Assembly: GCA_041662625.1 (NCBI GenBank) | Contig: JBAZSB010000001.1 | Location: 246,467-310,466, forward strand | Source: Patescibacteria group bacterium | Lineage (GTDB): Bacteria; Patescibacteriota; Patescibacteriia; Buchananbacterales; UBA6539 | Reading direction: 5' to 3' | DNA: 64,000 nt | Shown: positions 1,261 to 54,603 of the stretch, in pieces | How the letters are laid out: each line of letters opens with the position of its first letter | How positions within the stretch are numbered: position 1 is the stretch's first letter | Position numbers and translations under genes: made by a program | Notes under the pieces: model-generated | The model's input: only the letters and a program-made list of their open reading frames with translations | Databases searched by the model: none | What the model was told of the DNA's origin: nothing

Positions 1261-4200
1261 TTATTTTTTACCAGAAAGAGTATTTGGGCTGACCAGTAAA
1301 ACGATTAAGTAGATAACCGCCAAAACTAGAATGACTGCTAGCCAGGTAATCAACCAGCATTGAGGATACCAGATTATTACGGAAACAATAGCAATTAGCG
1401 CCGGAACTAACCCGGAGTATTTGACTGATTTAGTACCATTTTTGCCCTTGAAGGCAATGATTGCTGAGGCAATTAAATCCAGAATAAGTAAGAGCCAGAT
1501 ATAATTACTGCAGTTTTGCGTTGTAGCCGCTGGGGGTGTGGTTTCATCAGTAGTTTCGCCCAGTACGGTCCCTTCTTCAGCTGGCTGTTCAGCTGGCGGA
1601 GTGGGTGGAGTTTCTGTGTCGGTTGGAGTTGTTTCTTCTTGATATTCAACTCCAGCAACATTACCACTTGGATTAGCAGGCGTTCCTTCAGCTGGTGGAG
1701 GAGGAGTTGTCTCTTCGGTTGGTGGGACTTCTTCTGTTGGCGGAATTGCCGGTGGCACTTCCTCTAAAGTGAAGGTTAATTCATCGCCATAGACTTCAGG
1801 CGAAGCGGCTGAAAGTGGCCGGAAATAATAGACTGTAGCTGGTAATAAACCGGTAATTGTAACTGAATGATTGAGAACTTTGGGATCAGTATCAGTTGTG
1901 GCAGTTGACCAGGCATAGCCATAATTTGGTGCATAGCCAATAGCGGGATGGGAAACTAAATCATAGATTACCCGACTGGTAGCTTCGCGGTTAGTCATCC
2001 AAGTTACGGTTACTGAGCCAACTTCAGCTCCTCTGGTTAATCTAATGGTATGAATAAGCAAGCTATAAGGAGTACTACCGCCACCGCCACCTCCGCCACC
2101 GCCGCTGCCACCGCAAGCACCACAGTCGGCAGGACAGGCAGAGCAGGTTTCATTGCCGTTGCAAGAGCCATCTTCACAATATGGTTCGGTTTGATTGCAG
2201 CCTTCGTCAATGTTACTGTCGCAATCATTATCAATGCCGTCGCCACAAACTTCAGTAGCGCCCGGGTTTATACCTCTATCAGAGTCATTGCAGTCGTTAC
2301 CGTTCGGGCAGTAAGCTTCATTATAGACGGAATAAGTATCTTCATCAGCATCAACACATTGGATATCATGGCATTCATTGTTTTCACAATATTGACCCGT
2401 GCTGCAATCCTCATCAGTATTACATTCCGGACCAATCGATTCAGTACATAAGCTGATAGTATAAATGTCACCACCACCCTGGCCAGCACCATCGTCCCGG
2501 ATATCGATCTTATAAGAGCCATCCCAATTAACTGTTCCCCGACCAGCTAATTTAGTGAATGAATCAAGCTGATTGATAGCAACCGTAAGAGAACTTTGGC
2601 CATTAATTAAATAATTTGAATCCTGTAATAAGCTGATTGGATAAGAAACGCCATCAATTTTTATAATATCCCACCAATCTTGCGAACAATTATCATGAGA
2701 GCCGATTGGACTATAGGTTCCGTGACTTAATGATAACTGCCCGCCAGTTACTGTTAGCCAATCGCTACCATCAACGCAGGCTTGGAATTCAATGCAATTG
2801 CCTGTCTGGTTTTGGACTAACACGCAAGCGGATGTGCAAGAATAATTTTCATTTGGTACTCCATCTTGTCCATCGCACTCTTCATTGCCATTATCTTGCG
2901 GTCCGCCGGTGCCAACACCATTGGGTGTTTGCTTAATGCCATCACCGCAGAAAGTTTGGTAATTAAAGAAGTTTATTCCACCAATTCCTTGGCCATCAGC
3001 CAAAGTGACATCCTGAGATAACGGGGTGGTATTAAGCCAGCCAGTAACTAATTCTTCATAAATCGTCCAGATACCGGCAGTCAAGGCATTAAAGCAATAT
3101 AACCCGCTATCGTTAGTTTGAGTCGAGCTTAAGGTGGTATCTTTAGACGCCCAAATTGTCCAGGCTGGGATGACTACATCATTATTATTAAATATTCCAT
3201 CTCGATCATAATCATTATATTTATAACCGCAGATACTATTGGGTTCAATATCCCCTAGCCAATCATTGCCGAAATTAACATAAACGGTTTGTTCTGGAAC
3301 AGCGGTTACATCCTGAAATAAATCAGTGATATTCTTCCAACCCGGCTGCATCTCTTCCTGAACTCGGTAATTACCTGGCGTGACATCTTCAAAGCAGTAA
3401 TTTCCACCTTCGTCAGTTACCCGGTAGTCAATAATGGTTTGGTCGGTAGCGCAATGTAAAGCTTGGACACCGTCGACATCAAAACCATCAGTCTCGGCTC
3501 CGAATATTGTGGCAAACTTATTGGAAGTGTCAGTTAACTTTAAGTATTTAGCCCAAGCCAGACTACCTAAATCAAAAGTGCTGTCTTGGCAACCTTCACC
3601 AGCTAGTTCAACCCAGCTACTACCGTCTTGAGAAGCGGAAACTTTGACTTTTTCCGGATAGCTGGCGCAGCTGGGACTGCCATATGAAGTTTCAACTACA
3701 TCAATGTCATCCCCTGCTTCATTAAGAATTAAATTATCAAAGCTTAAAACCAGTTCACCGCCAAAGCCCAAAGCAACAAATTCAACCGGATCGCTATTGG
3801 AATATTGAGCCGCTCCTAATGCTTTAGAAGGATCGGTTCGTTCAGTGATAATTGGTGTACCATTTTTTCGTGTGCCGGGATTATAGCTAACCACGCCATC
3901 GGCCCATTGTTCACCTTCAGTACAGAAAGAAAACTCGATTAAATTTATAGTCCAATTTGCCAATCCGGGTTCTTCATCACGCTGTCCGTTTTCATTCTGG
4001 TCATGCCATTTATAACCGCAAATTGAGCTTTCGCAATCCTCGTCAACATATCCGTCGCAATCATTGTCAAGCTCGTCGCCACAAAATTCTTTTTCGCCTT
4101 CAGTTGGCACGGCGGAACAAACTGCCGGACCAGCTGGATCTTGCGGGTCGCAAGCGTAAGTACCACTTTGTTGGCAAATGCCTTGGCCGGCAATACATTC

Positions 4201-7200
4201 ACTGCCGACGTTCCAGCCTTCATCAATTAAGTCATCACAGTCATTATCAACGCCATCGCAGACTTCAGTGGTACACTCCGGCGGAGTGGGAATACAGCGG
4301 ACGCTGACATTATCTAAAAATGTGCCTAAAGAATTAGAAGTACCGCCGTCAGCAAATTCCAGCAAAGTTGTATAGCCACTGGCGGTTAAATTATATTGAT
4401 AAGGTGACCAGTTCAGACTACTGCCGCCAGCACCGGTAAGCGTAGAAACTAGGTTACCATCCCAGTTAAAATTCAAGACGTTATCACTGCTGCCAGTATT
4501 TGGTCGCGGTGAAAAATTGAAACTGACTAAATAGTTATAACCGGGCCAAGTGTTTAATTCCTGAGAAATTTTCACTGAAGCCGGTTCGCCATCGCCAGAA
4601 CCATTAGGGCCGGCCCAATCGCCGTCTAATTCAACATATTGGCTGCCATCAGGAATCAAACCGGAGAATAAACCTGATCGATGTAATTCTAAAGTCGCTT
4701 CAGTTGGTCTGGTCTGGCCTGGATAAGAATCAGAAGAAACCCAATCGGTAATCCAACTGGTTAAAGATGGAAGAAATATATCCCATTTGTTGGGGTTAGT
4801 AACAATTGGGTTTTCAAAACTACGGTTAAGCACTAACTCAACATCCGGATCACAGGTTGGCGGTAAGCCACATTCGGGCGAACATTCAAACGAACCGTTT
4901 GGCCCGTCATCGCAGTCTTCATCGCCTTCTTTAATATAATTGCCGCATTCTGGGCATTCTTCGGAATAAGGAGATATGGCCACACCTTCGCTTGTAAAAT
5001 TAAAGGAGAAATGAGATTGGACTGTATGGCGTTCGGCAAAAAAGATGTCCACTACATTATGGCCAGTCAAATGTAAACTGCCGGTTTTAGTGGTTGGGGC
5101 ATGAATGCCGCCATTATCAACGACTAAAACGCCGTCTAGATAAACCCAGGCATCATCATCGGAAGTCAGAGTATAATTATAATCTCCTTCAGTCTCAACT
5201 GAAACTAAGCCGCTCCAGTGAGCACCGAAATGATATTCATGGCCATTATCGATTTCTTCGACTGCTATATCAAAAGGAAAGAAATTTTCACCAAAAGTTA
5301 TAGCATTATCAATTCTTGTAAATTTTAAATATTGTGAATCATACCAATCATCGGTATCCCAGCTACCCAGCGGATCGCCATGACCGTCATCCGGCCATTC
5401 ATTGCCAGGCAAGTTCATATCCTGGTGATCTCTTGAATAATTATAATATTGGCCATACCAGCCGCTGCCTTCAGTTAGCTCTTCACAAGTTAATTGTTCA
5501 AGGCTGCAACTGGCAGAACAACCATCACCATCAGCAATATTGCCATCATCGCAAGTTTCATCACCTTCAATTTCATTATTACTGCAAACTGGTCCGGTTG
5601 GCTGACAGGTCGGATCGTTAGCACAATCTGAATCAGCACAATCAACAAAAGTATCGCCGTCATTATCTATGGTATCAGTACAATTTTGTTCTGGTTCAAT
5701 GGTGCAATTTTCGGAACAGCCGTCGCCGTTAACAGTATTGCCGTCATCGCAGGCTTCATTGCCTTCAAGGGCATCATTACCGCAAACGCTTGGAGTCGGA
5801 CCAGTACAATCAGAATTACAATGGCCATAGACGCCGTTATATTGACTGCCATCATCACAGATTTCCCGACCATTAACTGCCCCATCACCGCAACTTTGCG
5901 TTGTTATACAACTTCCCCACTGACATTCATTGCAGGCTTTACTGCCATTATAACCAGTTTCGGTAAGACATTCATCTGGGGTTTGTTGGTCACAATTTTC
6001 TGATTGTTGATTAACAATATTATCACCGCAATATGGTACATATTCTAAAGTACAGCTTTGGGTACAAATATAATGCGGGGGTACGCCATCAAGGGTATCG
6101 CATTCTTCATCGCCGTTTTTGGTTCCATCGTTACAGCCTTCCTGGGCAACACAATTGCTCCAGTCCAGACAATCTGATTGGCAGGTTTTCTGACCGGCGT
6201 AAGCACCAACAGAACAAGTGTCAGTTTGGCCAACTTCGCAAACTTCACTGTAACCTGGGTAACCCTGATCTAAAATATTATTATTACAAATTGGTAAATA
6301 GTTACCAAAATCTTTATTGGTTAAATTCTGGCCTTCGCTCAGGGTAACACTGTATGATCCGCTTACCGGATAGGTTTGTTGGTAAGGCTGACTGCTCGGT
6401 TCAGCTCCTTCAGAGACAGTATAATTGCCCGGCAATAAACCAGAGAACTGATAACAACCATTACTGTCAGTCACTTGGTTATCCGAGGTATCGCCGCTTA
6501 AAACAATTGGCCAACCAACTAAGGTGCTGTCGCCGGTAATGCTGCTGTCTTTGGCTACATCAGAATATTTACAGCCAGAGATTGAACCATACTGACAGAT
6601 CTCTTCAGAGATTGAATTGTAAATACTTTCTAGATCAGTTTGACTGGGGGCAAAATAATAACTGCCACCAGTAGCGTTAGCAATATATTGCAGCATGGTG
6701 GTGTTAACATCGCTGCCTAAACCAATGGTAAATATTTTGTAACCTAAACCGGCGGCTTCGTCAGCTTTGGCTTTGGCGTAATTAACATCAGCTTGATTTT
6801 CACCGGAGCCACTGCCATAAGGTTTATTGGCTTTGCCGTCAGTCAAAAGAATTGCAACCTTAACCGCTTGCGGATTAGCCCGAACTGAACCTAGCTCATC
6901 GTTAGACAAATCAATACCGTCACCAATATTGGTTGCACCATTAGCCGCTAAAGCATCAACGGCGATTTGTGTTGCCGGATGATCAGTTGATAAACCTTTA
7001 TCCAAATTTGCTGTGGTAGCAAAAGAAACTAAACCAGACTGGTCGTTGAGTCCCAGCAAACTTAGAAAGGTATCGGCAGCGCTTTTAGCGGCGGCTAATT
7101 TATTTGGCGTAGGTGGTACTGCTGGCGTGTAATTATGAGGACAGCTAGCTACACCTTGATTGTTACATTCAGTCTGAGTTAATCCATTTTTGGTGTGTTT

Positions 7201-7479
7201 ATTCCAGCAACCCCATAAATCACTTTTATTTTTATAATATTCACATTTACTTTGGCTACCCGAACTACCACCTTCGTCCATACTGCCTGACCGGTCAATA
7301 ATCAATACAACGTCAAGGTCAGCATCGCACATGCTTGGCGGCAACGGCGTAGCGGAAACTGCTGTTGGTATAAAGGCGGCACCATTAACCGACCAGAGAA
7401 TGGTAACCAAAGAAACAAAAATAGAAAACATTTTGTGTTTTCTAGGCTTTGAATAAGTGGGTTTTCCCATAGTTTGCAT
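1261..7479 (-). CDS. Giant (2072 aa) secreted multidomain adhesin-like protein: vWA, Cys-rich Myxococcus-type and MopE-like repeats, SdrD-B-like, DUF642/CBM-like, PA14, poly-Gly, PAP-N-like Fn3, Pro/Thr/Glu stalk and C-terminal two-TM anchor
   Basis: N-terminal signal peptide. vWA MIDAS motif DRSGSMDEGG. PA14 motif GDYNYTLTSDDDAWVYLDG (about nt 5040-5300). SdrD-B-like SICGYKYNDYDRDG and GYKWHDQNENGQRD. MopE-like motif NPGATEVCGDGIDNDCD. Myxococcus-type repeat ...CDDGN..GDGCS..C. DUF642-like NRSFENP...QYVELDGD. Fn3 TVTWMTNREATSRVIY...TVYYFRP. C-terminus NCSNYIWLLL...YPQCWLITWL. Confidence 0.85.
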   Translation of the reverse strand: MQTMGKPTYSKPRKHKMFSIFVSLVTILWSVNGAAFIPTAVSATPLPPSMCDADLDVVLIIDRSGSMDEGGSSGSQSKCEYYKNKSDLWGCWNKHTKNGLTQTECNNQGVASCPHNYTPAVPPTPNKLAAAKSAADTFLSLLGLNDQSGLVSFATTANLDKGLSTDHPATQIAVDALAANGATNIGDGIDLSNDELGSVRANPQAVKVAILLTDGKANKPYGSGSGENQADVNYAKAKADEAAGLGYKIFTIGLGSDVNTTMLQYIANATGGSYYFAPSQTDLESIYNSISEEICQYGSISGCKYSDVAKDSSITGDSTLVGWPIVLSGDTSDNQVTDSNGCYQFSGLLPGNYTVSEGAEPSSQPYQQTYPVSGSYSVTLSEGQNLTNKDFGNYLPICNNNILDQGYPGYSEVCEVGQTDTCSVGAYAGQKTCQSDCLDWSNCVAQEGCNDGTKNGDEECDTLDGVPPHYICTQSCTLEYVPYCGDNIVNQQSENCDQQTPDECLTETGYNGSKACNECQWGSCITTQSCGDGAVNGREICDDGSQYNGVYGHCNSDCTGPTPSVCGNDALEGNEACDDGNTVNGDGCSENCTIEPEQNCTDTIDNDGDTFVDCADSDCANDPTCQPTGPVCSNNEIEGDETCDDGNIADGDGCSASCSLEQLTCEELTEGSGWYGQYYNYSRDHQDMNLPGNEWPDDGHGDPLGSWDTDDWYDSQYLKFTRIDNAITFGENFFPFDIAVEEIDNGHEYHFGAHWSGLVSVETEGDYNYTLTSDDDAWVYLDGVLVVDNGGIHAPTTKTGSLHLTGHNVVDIFFAERHTVQSHFSFNFTSEGVAISPYSEECPECGNYIKEGDEDCDDGPNGSFECSPECGLPPTCDPDVELVLNRSFENPIVTNPNKWDIFLPSLTSWITDWVSSDSYPGQTRPTEATLELHRSGLFSGLIPDGSQYVELDGDWAGPNGSGDGEPASVKISQELNTWPGYNYLVSFNFSPRPNTGSSDNVLNFNWDGNLVSTLTGAGGSSLNWSPYQYNLTASGYTTLLEFADGGTSNSLGTFLDNVSVRCIPTPPECTTEVCDGVDNDCDDLIDEGWNVGSECIAGQGICQQSGTYACDPQDPAGPAVCSAVPTEGEKEFCGDELDNDCDGYVDEDCESSICGYKWHDQNENGQRDEEPGLANWTINLIEFSFCTEGEQWADGVVSYNPGTRKNGTPIITERTDPSKALGAAQYSNSDPVEFVALGFGGELVLSFDNLILNEAGDDIDVVETSYGSPSCASYPEKVKVSASQDGSSWVELAGEGCQDSTFDLGSLAWAKYLKLTDTSNKFATIFGAETDGFDVDGVQALHCATDQTIIDYRVTDEGGNYCFEDVTPGNYRVQEEMQPGWKNITDLFQDVTAVPEQTVYVNFGNDWLGDIEPNSICGYKYNDYDRDGIFNNNDVVIPAWTIWASKDTTLSSTQTNDSGLYCFNALTAGIWTIYEELVTGWLNTTPLSQDVTLADGQGIGGINFFNYQTFCGDGIKQTPNGVGTGGPQDNGNEECDGQDGVPNENYSCTSACVLVQNQTGNCIEFQACVDGSDWLTVTGGQLSLSHGTYSPIGSHDNCSQDWWDIIKIDGVSYPISLLQDSNYLINGQSSLTVAINQLDSFTKLAGRGTVNWDGSYKIDIRDDGAGQGGGDIYTISLCTESIGPECNTDEDCSTGQYCENNECHDIQCVDADEDTYSVYNEAYCPNGNDCNDSDRGINPGATEVCGDGIDNDCDSNIDEGCNQTEPYCEDGSCNGNETCSACPADCGACGGSGGGGGGGGGSTPYSLLIHTIRLTRGAEVGSVTVTWMTNREATSRVIYDLVSHPAIGYAPNYGYAWSTATTDTDPKVLNHSVTITGLLPATVYYFRPLSAASPEVYGDELTFTLEEVPPAIPPTEEVPPTEETTPPPPAEGTPANPSGNVAGVEYQEETTPTDTETPPTPPAEQPAEEGTVLGETTDETTPPAATTQNCSNYIWLLLILDLIASAIIAFKGKNGTKSVKYSGLVPALIAIVSVIIWYPQCWLITWLAVILVLAVIYLIVLLVSPNTLSGKK

Positions 7480-19635: not shown

Positions 19636-19890
19636 TTAAAACCCTAGGTTCATTCCTTGAAGTTTTTGGGCCATGCCTTTTTGGGCTTTAGTGATTGCTT
19701 CGTTTATACAGTCTTTGATTATTTGGTTTTGTTGTTCAGCCGGTAACTCCGGATTTATGATTACTTCTTCGACCTGGAGGTTACCATTCATTACGATTTT
19801 AAAGCCTTCTTTTTCAACAATAAATTTTTCGCTTTTCATTGAATCTTGTAAAGCTTTGAGTTGGCCGAGTTGTTTGAGTTTATCGAGCAT
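19636..19890 (-). CDS. ybaB: YbaB/EbfC family nucleoid-associated protein
   Basis: 84 aa, MLDKLKQLGQL...IVMNGNLQVEEVIINPEL... pattern. Sits downstream of dnaX, the conserved dnaX-ybaB arrangement. Confidence 0.8.
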   Translation of the reverse strand: MLDKLKQLGQLKALQDSMKSEKFIVEKEGFKIVMNGNLQVEEVIINPELPAEQQNQIIKDCINEAITKAQKGMAQKLQGMNLGF

Positions 19891-19922: not shown

Positions 19923-20085
19923 AATATCCACTTCTCGGGGACCCGCCTACGTCCCTTCGGGACTACGGCGGGCAGGCAGAATCTGGCGTCTCCCGACGTC
20001 GCCCATTGCTTTATTTTTATGGCGAGTCGGGATGCCGACCTTACGTCGGCACTACTTAGTCAACAATGTTCACTTCTCGGGGACC
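19923..20085. repeat. About 21-bp direct repeats (aat[ag]t[tc]cacttctcggggacc at 19923..19943 and 20065..20085) flanking a 121-bp insert; the right copy is the 3' end of tRNA-Gln
   Basis: Seen directly. The 3' acceptor segment of tRNA-Gln (ggtccccgagaagtg) is duplicated 142 bp away. The intervening DNA carries the 26-nt motif gaatctggcgtctcccgacgtcgcc, also present at 37598..37623. Confidence 0.6.
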
Positions 20086-20146
20086 AGGAATCGGACCTGG
20101 ATTAGCAGAGCCAGAATCTGCCGTCCTACCATTAGACGATCCCCGA
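20076..20146 (-). tRNA. tRNA-Gln (anticodon CUG)
   Basis: Manual fold of the minus-strand RNA: acceptor tcgggga/tccccga with U1-A72 and G73 discriminator (the Gln identity set), D-arm gtc/gac, anticodon arm gcaga-ttCTGgc-tctgc, T-arm ccagg-tccgatt-cctgg. CCA is not encoded. Confidence 0.7.
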
Positions 20147-20304
20147 GAAGTGAACACTTGGATTAAAAACCTTTTAAATGTTTCACCTTCATCCCGCCGT
20201 AGGCAGGACAAGTTAGATTCACCCGCCGAAGTCCCGACCTCAAGGAGGGACGTAAGCGGGCGATCCCCGAGTTATGTCTTGGAGAGTTTGCAAATTCAGA
20301 AATT

Positions 20305-21903
20305 CTAGTTGACAATCTGACCGCCGAAGGTTTCTAAAACATTTTTTAATGATTCATCAGTTGGGCTTTCCGCCAAAGCTTCAACTTCCACTTTGTCATC
20401 TGCTAAATCTTTGACAATTACGGTTTTAACAATTAGCTTAACCCCAAAAATTTCTTCTAAAACTTTTTCCAAAGTTTGTTTGTTTTTTAAATCATTAACC
20501 CGTTGCTGATGGAATTTATGCTTAAAGCAAAGTTCCAAAGTGCCATCTTCTTTAACCGTCGATGGTCGGCCAATTCTTAAAGTTGAGGCCAAGCTTTGAT
20601 TATACTTTTTTAAACAAATCAGCACTTCTTCCCATTTTTCTTTGATTTGTTCCAGGCTTAGTTTGACTTTGCTTAAATTTTTTTCTGGTCTCGGTTTTGG
20701 TAAAGGATTTATAATCGGCACCTCAGCTTTTTTATTTTCACCTTGATTTAAACCGCCCGAAAAATTGCTATCATCATTTTTATTTTTTGGGCTGTCATTT
20801 GAGTCTTGGTGGCTAGTAATAATTTCTAAAACTGCTAGTTCCAAAGGCAATTGCGGGATGTCGGCAAATTTGATTTCATAGCGTTTGGCAACAAAAATTT
20901 CAATGACTTTAACCAATAATTCTAAAGAGATCTTTTCGGCGGTATCAACTATCCTTTTTTCTAAGTCTTTACTAAAAGAGGCAGTGAATTCATTTAATTT
21001 AGTGCTGACCTTGACTAGTAAGATTTTCCGCAAGACTTCAATTAAGTCGTTGGTAAATCTTTCCAAATCAATTCCATTTTCCACCAGCCGATTGATTAAG
21101 GCTATTGCCGATATTGAATCTGATTTAATTAAATAGTCAATTAATTCAAGGACTAAATCAAAATGGGAATGGGGTAAAACTAATTCAGCCTGTTCAAGAG
21201 TTATTTCTTTTTCACCCAAAGAAAGAACCTGACCCAGCAGACTTTCGGCATCGCGAATGCAACCTTCAGAATGATAAGCAATATTTTCTAAAATGGCTTG
21301 ATCAACCTTTTTGCCTTCTTTACTTACAAGTTGGGCGAGACGCTGGATAATATCTTTTTCCGGCACTTTATGAAAATCAAAATGCTGGCAGCGGGAAATA
21401 ATCGTTTGGGGGACTTTATGAATTTCGGTAGTGGCCAAAACAAAAATGACATGGCTGGGTGGTTCTTCCAAGGTTTTCAGTAAAGCATTAAAAGCAGCAG
21501 TAGAAAGCATATGGACTTCATCAATAATGAAGACCTTGAATTTCCGGCTGGTCGGAGTAAAACGAGAATTATTAATGATATTTTCCCGTACATTATCAAC
21601 GCCGGTATGCGAAGCCGCATCAATTTCAATCACATCTAAAGATTTATTGGCGATTAATTCAAGGCAAGAATCGCAACTGTCACAAGGTTCACTTTCGCCT
21701 TCTTTCCGCTTGAGGCAATTGACAGCTTTAGCTAAAAGTCGGGCGGTGGTAGTTTTACCTAACCCGCGGGGACCGGAAAACAAATAAGCGTGAGCGACTT
21801 TTCCGTTTTCCAGCTCACTTTGAATCGTTGTTCGGATGTGGTTTTGGCCAACCAGTTCTTTAAATTTCTGGGGCCGATATTTTCGATAGAGGGTTGATGA
21901 CAT
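20305..21903 (-). CDS. dnaX: DNA polymerase III subunit gamma/tau
   Basis: AAA+ Walker A YLFSGPRGLGKTTTARLLAKAVNC, zinc module CDSCDSC, 532 aa. Confidence 0.9.
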   Translation of the reverse strand: MSSTLYRKYRPQKFKELVGQNHIRTTIQSELENGKVAHAYLFSGPRGLGKTTTARLLAKAVNCLKRKEGESEPCDSCDSCLELIANKSLDVIEIDAASHTGVDNVRENIINNSRFTPTSRKFKVFIIDEVHMLSTAAFNALLKTLEEPPSHVIFVLATTEIHKVPQTIISRCQHFDFHKVPEKDIIQRLAQLVSKEGKKVDQAILENIAYHSEGCIRDAESLLGQVLSLGEKEITLEQAELVLPHSHFDLVLELIDYLIKSDSISAIALINRLVENGIDLERFTNDLIEVLRKILLVKVSTKLNEFTASFSKDLEKRIVDTAEKISLELLVKVIEIFVAKRYEIKFADIPQLPLELAVLEIITSHQDSNDSPKNKNDDSNFSGGLNQGENKKAEVPIINPLPKPRPEKNLSKVKLSLEQIKEKWEEVLICLKKYNQSLASTLRIGRPSTVKEDGTLELCFKHKFHQQRVNDLKNKQTLEKVLEEIFGVKLIVKTVIVKDLADDKVEVEALAESPTDESLKNVLETFGGQIVN

Positions 21904-37517: not shown

Positions 37518-37526
37518 AATTTAATT

Positions 37527-37623
37527 GGTAGCCCCAAGCGGAATCGAACCGCTGTTACATGGATGCCACCCTATTGGGTGGTCGCCCGAAAGGGCGAAGA
37601 ACCTGGCGTCTCCCGACGTCGCC
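37527..37623 (-). other. tRNA-like 3' fragment (T-arm, acceptor 3' strand and encoded CCA) fused to the 26-nt motif shared with the tRNA-Gln locus; no matching 5' acceptor strand
   Basis: Minus-strand RNA ...catccatgtaac-agcgg-ttcgatt-ccgct-tggggct-a-cca. The required 5' partner agcccca is absent. Upstream is gcggcgacgtcgggagacgccag (motif at 37598..37623). Confidence 0.45.
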
Positions 37624-37733
37624 GCATGCTTATTTATTCATCTCATTTTTACCGCCACGGGGAATCTCCGCCGATGGCGGATGCGCCTTTTTTTATTAAT
37701 TAAGGTGGCGCAGAACCCCAAATATTGGCAATT

Positions 37734-37805
37734 TAGCCCGTGGGAGAATCGAACTCCCGTTACATGGATGAGAACCATGCGTCCTAGCCGCTAGACGAAC
37801 GGGCC
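37734..37805 (-). tRNA. tRNA-Glu (anticodon CUC)
   Basis: Manual fold: acceptor ggcccgt/acgggct (G1-U72), D-arm gtct-agcggcta-ggac, anticodon arm catgg-ttCTCat-ccatg, T-arm gggag-ttcgatt-ctccc, 72 nt. CCA not encoded. Confidence 0.8.
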
Positions 37806-37885
37806 ACGTATTTTGATTAGATTGGTAGACCGGTAGGTTGGTAGGTAGGCGCCTACCGTTCTACTCCCTACTTACTAACGGAAGT
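37806..37885. repeat. Intergenic palindromic repeat, family 1 (ggtagg/cctacc units plus gttagtaagtag), copy 1
   Basis: ...ggtagaccggtaggttggtaggtaggcgcctaccgttctactccctacttactaac... Confidence 0.65.
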
Positions 37886-39663: not shown

Positions 39664-39760
39664 AGGTTAGTAAGTAGGGCGGTAGGTTGGTAGGACGGTA
39701 GGATATTGAAATTATTCCTACCGATCTGCCGCTCTACCAACCTACTAATCTATTCTGCTT
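39664..39760. repeat. Intergenic palindromic repeat, family 1, copy 2 (about 30-bp imperfect stem)
   Basis: gttagtaagtagggcggtaggttggtaggacggtagga-N11-tcctaccgatctgccgctctaccaacctac. Confidence 0.7.
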
Positions 39761-43160: not shown

Positions 43161-43255
43161 AAATTAGTATTTAGTAAGTAGAACGGTAGATTGGTAGAAC
43201 GGTAGGTGCTTGCCTACCAATCTACTTTCCTACCGACCTACCGATCTAGGCTGTT
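43161..43255. repeat. Intergenic palindromic repeat, family 1, copy 3
   Basis: tttagtaagtagaacggtagattggtagaacggtagg-tgcttg-cctaccaatctactttcctaccgacctacc. Confidence 0.7.
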
Positions 43256-50361: not shown

Positions 50362-50982
50362 CTATCTATTCCCGTTTCTAATAATATTTTCCACCGCCGC
50401 CCATTTACTCTCGCCGTCATCAGGCGTCAAAATTACCACTTCATCACCTGGCGCCCCATGGAAATAAGTGACTGACGCCGTCAGCAATTTCCATTTCTTT
50501 TTGCCGTCAACCGCATACCACTCGCCGGCTTTTTCGTCCTGGACTAAAGTGGCCACCAATTGTTTTCTTTCCACCGGACCAATTTGTTTATAAATAAAAG
50601 AACCATCTTTGCGGATGGTTAATTTCAAAATATCACCTTCAACTAGTTTTGATTTCGAGGCATAATTGGCCGGCACGTTATATTCAATCCCGTCACCCCC
50701 AACCATCTTTTCACCGGTAAAAACGCCTTCGATAATCCGTTCACTGCCTTCGCTTAAATTAATAAAGCCTTCACTGGCTTCTTTAGTATCTTTAAGGCTA
50801 TCAAGTAAAGCAGCCGGATTAACATCTTTTTCATTCAATAACTTCAAAGCTTTCTTGATATTAGCTTGAGTATTTTCTAAAATATCCTTCAATAAATCCA
50901 AATGACGTTTGGTATCTTCGTCATCTAATTCTGGAGTTTCAAAGTTTTCGTCTTTTTGATTTTTTTTCTTTTTTCCCACCAT
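50362..50982 (-). CDS. Hypothetical protein (206 aa)
   Basis: Charged N-terminal region; no recognisable motif. Confidence 0.5.
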   Translation of the reverse strand: MVGKKKKNQKDENFETPELDDEDTKRHLDLLKDILENTQANIKKALKLLNEKDVNPAALLDSLKDTKEASEGFINLSEGSERIIEGVFTGEKMVGGDGIEYNVPANYASKSKLVEGDILKLTIRKDGSFIYKQIGPVERKQLVATLVQDEKAGEWYAVDGKKKWKLLTASVTYFHGAPGDEVVILTPDDGESKWAAVENIIRNGNR

Positions 50983-50999
50983 TTTTATTTTTATTAATT

Positions 51000-51536
51000 T
51001 TATTTTTGGTAAAGATAGATTGTGGCTTTTTTTGGGTTTGGTTTATCAACGATTTTGGGCGGCCAACCGGGCAGGCTGAAGGCATAAGAAACAATCCGGC
51101 AGCCGGGTTTAGTTTCTTTTTCTAATTTTGGTTTTATTTTTTTCATGGCTGGCGGGGTCAAAAACATGCAAATGACATCAGCCTGGCTTAGATCCTGACT
51201 GAAAAAATTGGCATATTTGAGCTTAACTTTCCCCGCTAAGCCCCTTAATATTATTTTAGTATACCCTAGCAGATATGGCAAGGTAGCAATTTCAAATCCG
51301 GTCGCTTTAGCGCCAAATTCTGTTGCCGCAATGATGATAATTCGGCCATCGCCGGCGCCCAAGTCATAAACAATTTCTCCGGGTTTAACCTCAGCAATTT
51401 TCATCATTCGCCGGATGTCGTCTTTCCAAAGCGGTACCCAGGGAGCAGCAGAAATTCCACCCAAAACAAAGGTGCCGAGTATCAAAAACAAAAAAATAAT
51501 GAATAACACCCAAAAAATAAAGATTAAAACCGTCAT
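51000..51536 (-). CDS. Membrane-anchored class I SAM-dependent methyltransferase
   Basis: N-terminal TM helix; motif I VYDLGAGDGRIIIIAA. Confidence 0.65.
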   Translation of the reverse strand: MTVLIFIFWVLFIIFLFLILGTFVLGGISAAPWVPLWKDDIRRMMKIAEVKPGEIVYDLGAGDGRIIIIAATEFGAKATGFEIATLPYLLGYTKIILRGLAGKVKLKYANFFSQDLSQADVICMFLTPPAMKKIKPKLEKETKPGCRIVSYAFSLPGWPPKIVDKPNPKKATIYLYQK

Positions 51537-54106
51537 AAGGACCGCTCCAGCGGCGGATTAAATTCATCGGCCTTTCTTAAACCAAGCTGACTACGCCGCG
51601 AAACATCAGCTTCGACTTTTTTCCGGTCAGCCCCGTATTTCCAGCGGGAAAATTCTTTAATTTCCGAAGCAATATCCTTGTTGCCAATTTTAGGGGGAAA
51701 AGCATGAAAATTGAAAGCCCGCGCCGGCTGATTATCAATCAATAATCTCACATAAGCATTAAATTTTTCAATATTCATCAAATCATACTCATCAACGACT
51801 GGCGCCATTTGTTTGGCGATTTCCTCGGCATCTTCCGGGCCAATCCGAAAAGCAGCAATCGTACCGACATTACCAAAGATAGCGTCTTTAACTTTATTCC
51901 CCTGGTTTTTGCCTTCCGGTCCGCTACTTTCAGTTAATTGCCCGATATACTGATGGGCTAAAATTAAATTAAGTTTATATTTTCTGGCTTCGGCTAAAAT
52001 TGTAGCGATACTATCAGTAATAAAGTTTTGGAACTCATCAATATATAAATAAAAATCATGACGCTTTTCTTCAGAAATATCTGTTCGTGACAAAGCCGCC
52101 ATTTGAAGTTTAGCCACAATAATTAGCCCCAGCAAATTACTGTTAACTTCGCCCGTTGTACCTTTAGCCAAATTAACTAATAATATTTTTTGCTGATCCA
52201 TCACTTCACGAAAATTAAAGCCGGATTTTGGTTGGCCGATGATATTTCTGATCATTTGATTTTCCACAAACCGGCCAACCTTGGAAATTAAATAGCCAAG
52301 CATTTCTGATTTATGGAAGTCGGAAGTTTTGGCCATTTCCTGTTCCCAAAACGACCGGACCATCGGATCAGTAACTTTAGTCAATTTATATTTTTGGAAA
52401 TCTTTGTCCGTAAACATCCGAGGGATTTCGGCAATCGTGCCTGGATATTCCCGATCCGCCATCAAAGTCAGCATAGCATTTCTCATGTTATGCTCAAACA
52501 TTGGGCCAATCATTGAAGGATCGGTGACCAATTTATAAAAAATCGAAATCATTTCTTGAATCGCAAAATCCTGCTGGTCAATGGTTTCTGCTTCCAACAT
52601 ATTCAAACCAATTGGCCGCTCCATATCAGAAGGATTGAAATAAATTACATCTTCTACTCTTTCTTTAGGGACATGGGGTAAAATATCTTCAACAAAACTA
52701 CCGTGCGGATCAATGATACAGACACCTTTACCATTTTTAATATCCTGAACCGCTAAATTAATCAATAAATTAGATTTACCAGTTCCGGTCATCCCGATGA
52801 TATAAAGATGACGCCGTCGGTCGTTAGTTTTTAAATAAATATTACTCGTTACGCCGCGATAAATATTTTCCCCCAGTAATATTCCTTCCTCGCCTAAATT
52901 AGACGGCGGGGGTAATCTTTTGGCCAAAAGCCACCGGACATTTGGCGTTTCCAAATAAGGGGTGGGAAAATGAAAGAGACTGGCCAATTCTTCCGTGTTT
53001 AAAATCAATTTTTGGTTATGATGAAAAGTCCGATAAATGAAGCTACTCACAAGCTTGTTGGCTGATTCTTTAACTAATTTAAAGCTGTTGCCATATTGGT
53101 AAAAATTGAACTGAGCAAAGGAATCAACGACGCTATTGAGATGCGCTTCAGCCCTGGCTTTATCCGGCGCTGAGGCAACAATTCTAATATTGCAATCCAG
53201 GCCGGCTTTAGAGGTTTTTTCTTCTAAACCTTTAACTAATTCTTGCTCCATCGGCGAAAGAGTCCTTGGGGCTTTAACTTTTTCCGCCTCAATTTGCTTT
53301 GCGGTCTTAGTATTAAATAAATTAAAAACACTACTAAAACTCAATTTGGACATTGCTTCATTAACGGTTTTTCCTTTCTGAACTTCAGTGGCCACTCTTG
53401 AACCTTTGGCGTGCCAGCCTTTTTTAGCCGACCGGGCGATAATTTGAATCGCAACGCCGTCGGTCTTATTAATTTTGCTCAAGGAATTAGTAACGGCATT
53501 CAAGGGGTCAGTGCCCAATTTTTGGTAAGTTTTGATGGGAAAAATATAACTGCGGGTAAATTTTAAATAACCGGTTATTACCTCCTCTTGGGGCGAAAAA
53601 ATATTATAATCCTGGACTTCAGACAAATTCGCTTCGGGATGTTGGGCCAAAATTTGCTGTTCCAGATGGTTTTGTAGATATTTAGGAGCGGCGACATAAA
53701 AAGAAATTAAACCATCCCGGGCAACAATCTCAAAAGAAAAAACATCAGTCCTGCCCCAAAACCAGGCCCGTAGTCCGCGCTGGGCTTTTAGGCCACCGAT
53801 AGTTGAAAGCCAGCTTTCGGCCAAAGAAATCTGGCTGCGAATTTGCTCAATAGTTTTTTCTTGATCAGCCGATTCAGCCGATTCCTTGGGGACGGTGACT
53901 AAAAAAATTACTTTTTGGAATGCCGCCGGCAAAAAATTCCTCAATCGTAATAATGCCCTAATCAAAAAAACCAAGATAACCAAAAGTATTATCAAGGTTA
54001 ATATATCAATGGCGATAAAAAGGTATGCCTGGTTAATTGTCACTGTCGGATCAATGGTCGGATATTGGGGGCTAGGAACACCAAATTGAGTTGCCAGTAA
54101 ACTCAT
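51533..54106 (-). CDS. VirD4/TraG/TraD-like coupling-protein ATPase (T4SS DNA-binding domain), membrane-anchored
   Basis: N-terminal TM; Walker A IIGMTGTGKS; Walker B YLYIDEFQNF; 857 aa. Confidence 0.6.
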   Translation of the reverse strand: MSLLATQFGVPSPQYPTIDPTVTINQAYLFIAIDILTLIILLVILVFLIRALLRLRNFLPAAFQKVIFLVTVPKESAESADQEKTIEQIRSQISLAESWLSTIGGLKAQRGLRAWFWGRTDVFSFEIVARDGLISFYVAAPKYLQNHLEQQILAQHPEANLSEVQDYNIFSPQEEVITGYLKFTRSYIFPIKTYQKLGTDPLNAVTNSLSKINKTDGVAIQIIARSAKKGWHAKGSRVATEVQKGKTVNEAMSKLSFSSVFNLFNTKTAKQIEAEKVKAPRTLSPMEQELVKGLEEKTSKAGLDCNIRIVASAPDKARAEAHLNSVVDSFAQFNFYQYGNSFKLVKESANKLVSSFIYRTFHHNQKLILNTEELASLFHFPTPYLETPNVRWLLAKRLPPPSNLGEEGILLGENIYRGVTSNIYLKTNDRRRHLYIIGMTGTGKSNLLINLAVQDIKNGKGVCIIDPHGSFVEDILPHVPKERVEDVIYFNPSDMERPIGLNMLEAETIDQQDFAIQEMISIFYKLVTDPSMIGPMFEHNMRNAMLTLMADREYPGTIAEIPRMFTDKDFQKYKLTKVTDPMVRSFWEQEMAKTSDFHKSEMLGYLISKVGRFVENQMIRNIIGQPKSGFNFREVMDQQKILLVNLAKGTTGEVNSNLLGLIIVAKLQMAALSRTDISEEKRHDFYLYIDEFQNFITDSIATILAEARKYKLNLILAHQYIGQLTESSGPEGKNQGNKVKDAIFGNVGTIAAFRIGPEDAEEIAKQMAPVVDEYDLMNIEKFNAYVRLLIDNQPARAFNFHAFPPKIGNKDIASEIKEFSRWKYGADRKKVEADVSRRSQLGLRKADEFNPPLERSL

Positions 54107-54111
54107 TTATT

Positions 54112-54603
54112 TTATTTTAAGTGGATTATTTTATCGGTTTTTATTTTAGCTTCTTGGCGAATAAAGAATTTGCTGACTCCGGGGATAATCTTTAGCCAAG
54201 CCAAAATCAGCTTAAAAATTTTTTTAGTTTTTACTTTAGTCTTAGCTAAAATTTTTTCAATTTGCTTAGCTGTATCTTCGCCTTTAGCTTTGAATTGTTG
54301 CCTCAGCGCCGGGTCCATCTTAAAATAGGCATCTTCTAATTCTTCTTCCAAAATACCTTCAATTTTAATCAACGCCTCACTTTTATCCAAAGGCACAATT
54401 TTTGCTGCCATTGCTGGCGGCGGGATAGGGGTTGGTTTAAACCCCGCTTCCTTTTCTTGGGCAACTTCAGCCACTCCTTCTTCTACTGGTTCACTTTCCG
54501 GCTTTACCAGCTTTTCTTTTGACTCCGGCTCAAATTCTTTTGGCGGAATTATCTCGCGCCTAGGGGTTGGTTCAGTTTGTTTTTGAAAAAATTGAGGGCT
54601 CAT
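54112..54603 (-). CDS. Hypothetical Glu/Lys-rich protein (163 aa)
   Basis: Low-complexity charged protein; only a 5-nt gap from the upstream ATPase gene. Confidence 0.45.
   Translation of the reverse strand: MSPQFFQKQTEPTPRREIIPPKEFEPESKEKLVKPESEPVEEGVAEVAQEKEAGFKPTPIPPPAMAAKIVPLDKSEALIKIEGILEEELEDAYFKMDPALRQQFKAKGEDTAKQIEKILAKTKVKTKKIFKLILAWLKIIPGVSKFFIRQEAKIKTDKIIHLK

Follow-up and report, generated by a model that had tools for sequence, protein, structure and literature searches.

Next to its intact tRNA-Gln and tRNA-Glu genes, a Patescibacteria group bacterium (GTDB lineage Bacteria; Patescibacteriota; Patescibacteriia; Buchananbacterales; UBA6539) carries hairpin-studded fragments of tRNA sequence which are, on balance and with some reserve, best read as decaying tRNA copies into which small palindromes were inserted and which recombination has reshuffled. 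Both loci lie in the window, by which the whole analysed stretch of 64,000 nucleotides is meant (assembly GCA_041662625.1, contig JBAZSB010000001.1, positions 246,467 to 310,466 of the forward strand); coordinates are those of the window unless another genome is named. The fragments are tRNA-derived and collinear, excision of the hairpins in related genomes restores a recognisable tRNA-Gln, the copies show defects of the pseudogene type, and the arrangement differs even among close relatives. The hairpins would be palindromes, either non-autonomously mobile or self-extending, which persist only where a tRNA copy is dispensable, and the dead copies would have no decoding role; most probably, the loci are debris without a function for the cell.

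The intact tRNA-Gln(CUG) is located between dnaX (20305-21903) and ybaB (19636-19890, PF02575) in a spacer of 356 nt, with both genes and the tRNA on the minus strand. ARAGORN places it at 20075-20147 and the Rfam tRNA model at 20076-20146 (56.6 bits, E 1.5e-9), and it has the pair U1-A72, G73 and no encoded CCA. This agrees with a sequence-only reading of the window, which had called such a tRNA at this place and had noticed that about 15 nt of its 3′ end recur 142 bp away. The recurrence is real: 19923-19943 repeats 20065-20085 in direct orientation over 21 nt with 90% identity and a spacing of 142, including the 15-mer GGTCCCCGAGAAGTG, which is exact at 19929-19943 and 20071-20085, with 121 bp between the repeat copies. 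The repeats extend to other parts of the tRNA as well, as the first 10-11 nt of tRNA-Gln are found again 124 nt upstream (20261-20271) and a segment from the D stem to the anticodon loop is repeated at 88% (19974-19990 vs 20109-20125). When the intact tRNAs are mapped onto the spacer by short-word BLAST, the order is positions 1-10, the intact tRNA, positions 22-35 and positions 62-71.

To place these pieces, orthologous dnaX-ybaB spacers were fetched through YbaB homologues from four further distinct genomes, L007, L011, L013 and L016, the last of which has the same spacer as L002 (Candidatus Buchananbacteria). Their ybaB DNA is 90%, 67%, 66% and 62% identical to that of the window, respectively. 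Read along the minus strand, the dead copy in the window begins directly after dnaX with piece 1-10 (UCGGGGAUCG, 20261..20270; repeat search and blastn-short map), which stands at the same spacer place in L011, L013 and L016. It is followed by hairpin hp1 (20222..20260, 39 nt, -20.0 kcal/mol), which interrupts the dead copy behind position 10 and has a homologue at this site in L007 and L013. The sequence UCUAAC (20212-20217), by comparison with L013 a remnant of the D-loop region, then precedes hairpin hpX (UCCUGCCUACGGCGGGA, 20192..20208, -10.0 kcal/mol). Beyond the intact tRNA, a hairpin GCCGAC-GUAAG-GUCGGC (20034..20050) has the same stem in L016 and a different loop length, and a 42-nt hairpin with the arms UCCCGACUCGCCA and UGGGCGACGUCGGGA around an AU-rich loop (19991..20032, -19.6 kcal/mol) abuts piece 22-35 (GACGCCAGAUUCUG, 19977..19990). 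This piece comprises the 3′ strand of the D stem, the 5′ strand of the anticodon stem and the loop up to the anticodon CUG; by blastn-short it is 100% identical to the L016-type tRNA-Gln and 93% identical to the window's own. Hairpin hp3 (19942..19976, 35 nt, -21.7 kcal/mol) stands behind CUG in the anticodon loop of this copy and has a homologue at the same site in L007 and L016. The copy ends with piece 62-71 and 11 nt of trailer (19923..19943), which is the 3′-end duplication itself, and its positions 17-21 and 36-61 are missing. The sequence-only reading had described a hairpin followed by a T-run between the repeats. The hairpin is present (19991-20032), but the T-run forms its loop, and terminator-like sites are predicted on neither strand of the two loci.

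The relatives show how such pieces belong together. In L011, positions 1-10 and 10-18 precede the intact tRNA and positions 17-71 follow it, while in L007 the intact tRNA is followed by 3-12, 10-18, 19-35 and 35-71. L013 has only 1-10 and then the intact tRNA, and L016 has the intact tRNA and then 55-71, 22-35 and 35-53. The extra pieces thus stand in tRNA order in every compared spacer except that of L016 and therefore each spacer holds at least one further, cut-up tRNA-Gln copy. GC-rich hairpins separate the pieces, and an intact tRNA-Gln(CUG) adjoins the interrupted copy in each of the five genomes. The turnover is considerable, as the window and L007 have 90% identical ybaB DNA and yet very differently arranged spacers; in a fifth relative, L008, dnaX abuts ybaB with neither spacer nor tRNA. 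L013 has no downstream tRNA pieces, and its tRNA-Gln is separated from ybaB by two extra genes (DUF1003 and nitroreductase, 1476-2401 of that contig). Within the tRNA/hairpin repeats, three independent metagenome contigs break off (the end of L006 at 6424-6500 and the starts of L007 at 1-39 and L012 at 1-50), and such loci therefore break short-read assemblies.

The second copy in L011 is complete and reads TCGGGGATCG, a 20-nt hairpin, TCTAATGG, a 199-nt insert and TAGGAC...CCCCGAG. The 199-nt insert is bounded by CCCGCCCGC...GCGGGCGGG and contains the intact tRNA-Gln, so that the live tRNA is nested in a D-loop insertion of the second copy. The second copy in L007 is likewise complete and has three hairpins, one after position 10, one in the D loop and one in the anticodon loop after CUG. 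Once the inserts are excised, ARAGORN calls a tRNA-Gln(CUG) in both genomes. With relaxed settings it directly recognises the L007 copy as a tRNA-Gln whose anticodon loop contains a 43-nt insert, and it also calls a partial copy in L011. Such loci can therefore mislead tRNA annotation through "intron-containing" calls of relaxed ARAGORN. The restored copies are nevertheless damaged, that of L011 by the T loop UUUUACU and that of L007 by mismatches in the T stem and at two acceptor pairs, 1-72 and 2-71. Because of this damage and of the positions missing from the window copy, the interrupted tRNA-Gln copies are classed as pseudogenes.

The inserts are 15-60 nt long and are flush, self-paired palindromes in which the first base pairs with the last, with predicted stabilities of -8 to -22 kcal/mol. 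Many of them start with CC(C/U)GCC and end with GGC(G/A)GG. Where 0.9 strand-hits of this pattern would be expected in the window, there are 8; six of them, belonging to three distinct hairpins, are in the tRNA-Gln spacer. The matches in L007, L013 and L016 are in the same spacer as well, apart from one long-gapped match in L016 (4164-4234) that is taken as chance. Hairpins at an equal tRNA position are homologous across genomes, with identical outer stems, indel-rich loops and two compensating changes in an inner stem (GUCCC/GGGAC vs GCUCC/GGAGC). Hairpin decay is also seen, as hp1 of L007 has a C.A mismatch and one arm in the window is orphaned. Perfect GC-rich hairpin arrays, for instance CCTCTCTCCGATCTCGGAGAGAGG and CCCCTCTTAATTTAAGAGGGG, also occur in tRNA-free intergenic DNA of related CPR (Candidate Phyla Radiation) genomes, at 460-570 in L018 and 2225-2440 in L027.

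The sequence-only reading had also pointed to a 26-nt motif between the repeats that recurs at a second tRNA locus. This is borne out by the 21-mer core GGCGACGTCGGGAGACGCCAG (minus strand), which occurs exactly at 19983-20003 and at 37603-37623 beside tRNA-Glu(CUC), with no further copy in the window at up to three mismatches and none in 100 shuffles. On the tRNA strand the motif reads GGCGACGUCGGGA followed by GACGCCAG(A/G)UUC. Of its two parts, the first belongs to the 42-nt hairpin as its 3′ arm and the second corresponds to tRNA positions 22-35, identical in this part to the L016-type tRNA-Gln. The motif is thus the junction between the hairpin arm GGCGACGUCGGGA and tRNA positions 22-35. 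It was also considered as the "mini D arm" of a tRNA-like RNA (a CGUC-GGGA-GACG tetraloop hairpin), a notion that was dropped because the partner arm UCCCGACUCGCCA and the orthologues show the 3′ arm of a larger hairpin joined to positions 22-35.

At the second locus, the intact tRNA-Glu(CUC) (37734..37805, minus strand; ARAGORN, Rfam 57.9 bits) is followed on the same strand by a 3′ fragment of another tRNA (37650..37720), which reads UGGGG-UUC, hairpin Ma (37682-37712), a further hairpin (37667-37681) and GAUU-CCCCG-UGGCGGU-A. Removing the two hairpins gives the canonical T arm UGGGG-UUCGAUU-CCCCG. The T-loop cassette of GGUUC, hairpin Ma and the second hairpin is common to this locus and to the sequence downstream of tRNA-Gln in L016. 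The second motif copy follows on the minus strand (37598..37623), with an orphan arm GGCGACGUCGGGA at 37611-37623, whose partner arm is absent, joined to tRNA piece 22-34 (GACGCCAGGUUCU). Two 16-nt hairpins of -10.1 kcal/mol each (37566..37597, minus strand) then lie within an anticodon loop, and their removal yields UUCUCAU, the anticodon loop of tRNA-Glu. The sequence-only reading was also correct in seeing a tRNA-like 3′ end here: a tRNA-Glu-like 3′ half of positions 36-73 (37526..37565, minus strand; 88% over 25 nt and a T-arm match) starts 32 nt beyond the motif and consists of CAU-CCAUG-UAAC, the T stem AGCGG/CCGCU, the acceptor strand UGGGGCU, A73 and an encoded CCA. As CCA is not encoded by either live tRNA of the window, its presence hints at a foreign origin of this fragment. 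The encoded CCA (37526-37528) ends 8 nt before the start codon of ywbE. Both motif loci are thus mosaics of one kind, and they have building blocks in common with another genome. A comparison of the tRNA-Glu locus through YwbE homologues yielded no orthologue of it, as its neighbourhood is not shared by the relatives.

Outside the window the motif is rare. Among 185,579 species-representative genomes it is exact in one genome of the Candidate Phyla Radiation (CPR), that of Candidatus Buchananbacteria (L002), and in three high-GC genomes, where it is taken as chance because no tRNA lies beside it. In JGI metagenomes it was found only on the contig of L002 and on a contig identical to the tRNA-Glu locus of the window. 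Four exact module and junction patterns gave no match in viral contigs; plasmids were not searched. The two motif copies in the window are in direct orientation 17.6 kb apart, which might suggest a genomic island between them; this idea was discarded, since dnaX and further housekeeping genes but no recombinase lie in between. No integrase, transposase, RAYT-type or recombinase domain was detected in the 46 of 50 selected open reading frames (ORFs) of the 64-kb window, all of at least 110 aa, that were screened. The view that the repeat and the motif are no products of chance, are linked to tRNAs and enclose no sizeable cargo is upheld.

The favoured explanation, with palindromes inserted into decaying tRNA copies, can be spelled out as a sequence of events. 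A dispensable second tRNA copy would have gained GC-rich palindromes at the tips of the cloverleaf arms, namely in the D stem and D loop, the anticodon loop and the T loop, and the split copies would then have been trimmed by deletions in the AU-rich loops. Dead copies would subsequently have been reshuffled by recombination between copies and between loci, during which the joint of hairpin arm and tRNA positions 22-35, seen as the motif, would have been copied from one tRNA locus to the other. Behind tRNA-Glu, a similar wreck would have formed from a tRNA-Glu-like copy and pieces of other tRNAs. Insertion is argued for because precise excision restores the tRNA, the ends of the hairpins are related, a cassette occurs at different tRNAs and the turnover is fast. 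Between the window and L016, a module of the spacer has an identity of 83% (90 of 109 aligned positions, plus 27 indel columns), compared to 62% for ybaB DNA, and this would point to exchange or constraint. Four shared modules (81 nt without a substitution) are no proof of recent transfer, as they were chosen for their identity.

Several points weigh against this explanation. The joints show no consistent target-site duplication, with only 1-3 nt of ambiguity, the hairpin family is essentially confined to the tRNA-Gln spacer with no clear dispersed copies elsewhere in the 64 kb, and the screened ORFs contain no candidate transposase or other enzyme. Selection on an RNA or on a protein-binding site could likewise account for identical stems with free loops, and the higher identity of the spacer than of the coding sequence seems to speak against pure neutral decay. 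The five distinct genomes compared all come from related groundwater metagenomes, and the order of events, nested in L011 and tandem in L007, allows more than one reconstruction. Moreover, the hairpins may only seem to target tRNA loops, because GC-rich hairpin arrays are also present in the tRNA-free intergenic DNA of L018 and L027.

The duplication of a tRNA 3′ end had been taken in the sequence-only reading as the scar of an integrase around a 121-bp cargo. In its broader form, this explanation holds that phages, integrative and conjugative elements (ICEs) or integrase-less derivatives mobilised in trans recombined repeatedly with the anticodon loop, the T loop or the 3′ end of tRNA-Gln and tRNA-Glu and that displaced 3′ pieces of the tRNAs and short ends of the elements stayed after the cargo was lost. 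A direct repeat of 21 nt made of tRNA 3′ end and trailer does flank 121 bp, and fragments start at the 5′ strand of the T stem (37720) and at the D/anticodon stem (19990), as the identity blocks of integrases usually do. Breaks are found in the anticodon loop and the T loop, which Williams is said to have described in 2002 as the classical sublocations of integrase crossover. The encoded CCA of the Glu-like fragment, absent from the resident tRNAs, suggests a foreign origin, modules are common to two divergent genomes of one metagenome, and such tRNA fragments are well documented (PMC4383910, PMC9897764). Integration, however, does not yield a free 5′ fragment upstream of the intact tRNA, as present in four genomes, nor a downstream copy which, in the window, is broken into 22-35 and 62-71 with a hairpin between them rather than forming one contiguous 3′ block. 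In L011, the halves of the outer copy are exactly contiguous around the insert with the whole tRNA, which speaks for insertion and not for an exchange of attachment sites. The loops hold self-contained palindromes instead of element ends, the displaced acceptor strand UGGCGGU (37650-37656) mismatches the resident tRNA-Glu, and neither an integrase in the screened ORFs nor a viral-contig match of the four patterns was found. The scar around a 121-bp cargo does not fit, the orthologous spacers show a second tRNA-Gln copy interrupted by hairpins, and the broader form has only a modest chance of being correct. The other suggestion of the sequence-only reading, a miniature repeat that targets tRNAs, is closer to the evidence, but the repeated unit is not the 26-nt motif, which is a junction of hairpin arm and tRNA. 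A stronger version would regard the GC-rich palindromes as miniature elements specific to tRNA loops, with the live tRNA-Gln in its leader/trailer palindrome as cargo; the invader would destroy the resident tRNA through the D loop while supplying a replacement, as the nesting in L011 might indicate. Such a self-rescuing invader of tRNA genes in CPR bacteria is distinctly unlikely.

A selected RNA structure would account for other parts of the data. Here, a helix around the tRNA would direct cleavage, for instance by RNase III, and the hairpins would protect the 3′ message end of dnaX and the 5′ message end of ybaB in the manner of repetitive extragenic palindromic (REP) sequences. This is consistent with the shared strand of the genes and tRNAs, with the lack of any predicted promoter or terminator within the spacers, with compensatory changes in the leader/trailer helix, with the strong folding of the 356-nt spacer (z = -12.8 vs shuffled sequence), with conserved stems and free loops, and with the hairpin arrays in other intergenic spacers of relatives. 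Against it stand the strong divergence in number, identity and order of hairpins between relatives as close as the window and L007, the complete lack of a dnaX-ybaB spacer in L008 and the broken hairpins (orphan arm at 37611-37623, C.A mismatch in hp1 of L007), and it leaves the exact placement of the hairpins in tRNA loops unexplained. As the general explanation it is rather unlikely; as a secondary use, protection of message ends by the hairpins is plausible. It could also be argued that the hairpins are introns, or the pieces halves, and that their removal or joining in the RNA yields a second functional tRNA-Gln, since excision restores a full cloverleaf in L011 and L007 and upstream and downstream pieces are able to pair through acceptor strands and hairpin arms. 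For the window this is refuted by the missing positions 17-21 and 36-61. The restored copies are defective in universally conserved features, and an intact tRNA-Gln(CUG) is always adjacent. The inserts are flush palindromes without bulge-helix-bulge geometry at their joints (by inspection only) and without a group I intron signal with Rfam Intron_gpI, even at E up to 10. A functional split or interrupted tRNA is therefore most improbable.

The surroundings of the live tRNA-Gln are a separate matter from its dead copies. In the window, the acceptor stem together with 10 nt each of leader and trailer makes a perfect 17-bp helix: the leader arm UGUUCACUUC (20147..20156, minus strand) pairs with the trailer arm AAGUGAACA (20067..20075, minus strand; with G73), with 17 nt being 100% complementary and covariation in four genomes. 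In the four genomes for which both flanks are known, the intact tRNA-Gln has 10-15 extra leader/trailer base pairs, formed by sequences that vary (UGUUCACUUC/GAAGUGAACA in the window, AUAGUAUCCAAUUC/GAAUUGGAUACUAU in L016 and UUCAUUACAU/AUGUAAUGAA in L011). Both sides have changed in 8 of 15 extension pairs and 92% of cells are paired across these genomes, a level reached by none of 500 shuffles and compared to 38-54% for slid controls. The tRNA-Glu has no such helix. The covariation argues that the leader/trailer helix of the live tRNA-Gln is under selection. Since the genes are packed on one strand and no promoter or terminator is predicted in the spacer, the most economical reading is that the helix would guide the release of tRNA-Gln from the dnaX-ybaB transcript. 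The helix is a separate, testable lead on how a message-embedded tRNA is freed in bacteria with a reduced RNA-processing machinery. The T loop of this tRNA-Gln is UCCGAUU (20087-20093, minus strand) with C at position 55, where U is near-universal. In L007, the closest relative, the tRNA-Gln type of the window is the interrupted pseudogene, and the intact copy has a canonical T loop.

Displaced fragments of tRNA genes are well known from places where genomic islands and prophages integrate (PMC4383910, PMC9897764). The loci of the window resemble them in that an intact tRNA is followed by 3′ partial copies in direct orientation which start near the anticodon or T stem. They differ in having no island or integrase, a 5′ fragment upstream, fragments interrupted by palindromes and, in L011, a whole tRNA nested in a D loop. 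The hairpins also recall the bacterial palindromes of the REP/REPIN type and those resembling miniature inverted-repeat transposable elements (MITEs; PMC3733652), as they are short and GC-rich with conserved stems and variable loops, are clustered in intergenic DNA and may stabilise messages. Unlike these, they occupy defined positions in tRNA-derived sequence without clear dispersed copies in the 64 kb, and unlike REP sequences they have no GTAG/CGTC tags at their ends. The screened ORFs of the window contain no RAYT or other transposase. Mobile GC clusters in mitochondria, which merge and shuffle, are a further parallel, represented by GC42 of yeast (PMC4478555) and repetitive hairpin-forming elements of sponges (PMC2800124). 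The likeness extends to GC palindromes in an AT-richer background, to their location in non-coding DNA and RNA genes and to rapid turnover and shuffling, but the host here is a CPR bacterium and not an organelle, and there is no sequence similarity.

Archaea have multi-intron, split and tri-split tRNA genes, with intron transposition between tRNAs in Thermoproteales (PMC10714607). As in these archaea, several short and mutually related inserts are present at non-canonical positions, and GC-rich complementary segments flank the pieces. In contrast to them, the host is bacterial, bulge-helix-bulge motifs are lacking and the copies are defective and redundant, which is why the interrupted tRNA-Gln copies are very probably not spliced. 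CPR bacteria are known to have group I introns in tRNA genes and introns in rRNA genes (PMC8172020, PMC9297842), and a review refers, giving no detail, to insertion sequences in the tRNA genes of CPR bacteria (PMC9698310). While the bacterial group is the same and RNA genes are invaded in both cases, group I introns have about 200 nt or more, whereas the inserts described here are palindromes of 15-60 nt without a ribozyme core or an Rfam intron match. In a literature search, no account was found of bacterial tRNA copies whose loops carry several short palindromes, nor of one tRNA gene lying within the D loop of a second copy.

Small CPR genomes are usually regarded as streamlined. If decaying tRNA copies have indeed been colonised by palindromes and reshuffled, such genomes tolerate dead tRNA copies stuffed with palindromes, and keep reshuffling them, inside a housekeeping operon. 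The loci would then offer, in a bacterium, a counterpart to archaeal tRNA genes that are split or have several introns, and would bear on the origin of interrupted tRNA genes.

The remaining observations concern the wider window. Its two tRNAs share one strand with the surrounding genes, and the neighbours of the tRNA loci are housekeeping genes. A search against Rfam, of the window at the gathering threshold and of both loci at E up to 10, returned only the two tRNAs and chance fragments. ARAGORN found no transfer-messenger RNA (tmRNA), and the Rfam tmRNA model matched just an 18-nt T arm (12 bits vs a threshold of 47). A separate palindrome family rich in GGTAGG/CCTACC (CGGTAGG...CCTACCG) is present at 37831-37858, 39680-39723 and 43200-43243, in spacers of the heat-shock gene row hrcA-grpE-hsp20-dnaK-DUF3467-dnaJ and immediately upstream of the tRNA-Glu gene; these palindromes are possibly regulatory or REP-like. 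On the minus strand, 1261-7479 holds an ORF of 2072 aa. The sole hint of a conjugation-type machinery in the window is an 857-aa protein with the domains TrwB_AAD_bind and T4SS-DNA_transf of type IV secretion coupling proteins (50362-54603), which is flanked by ORFs without a Pfam match.

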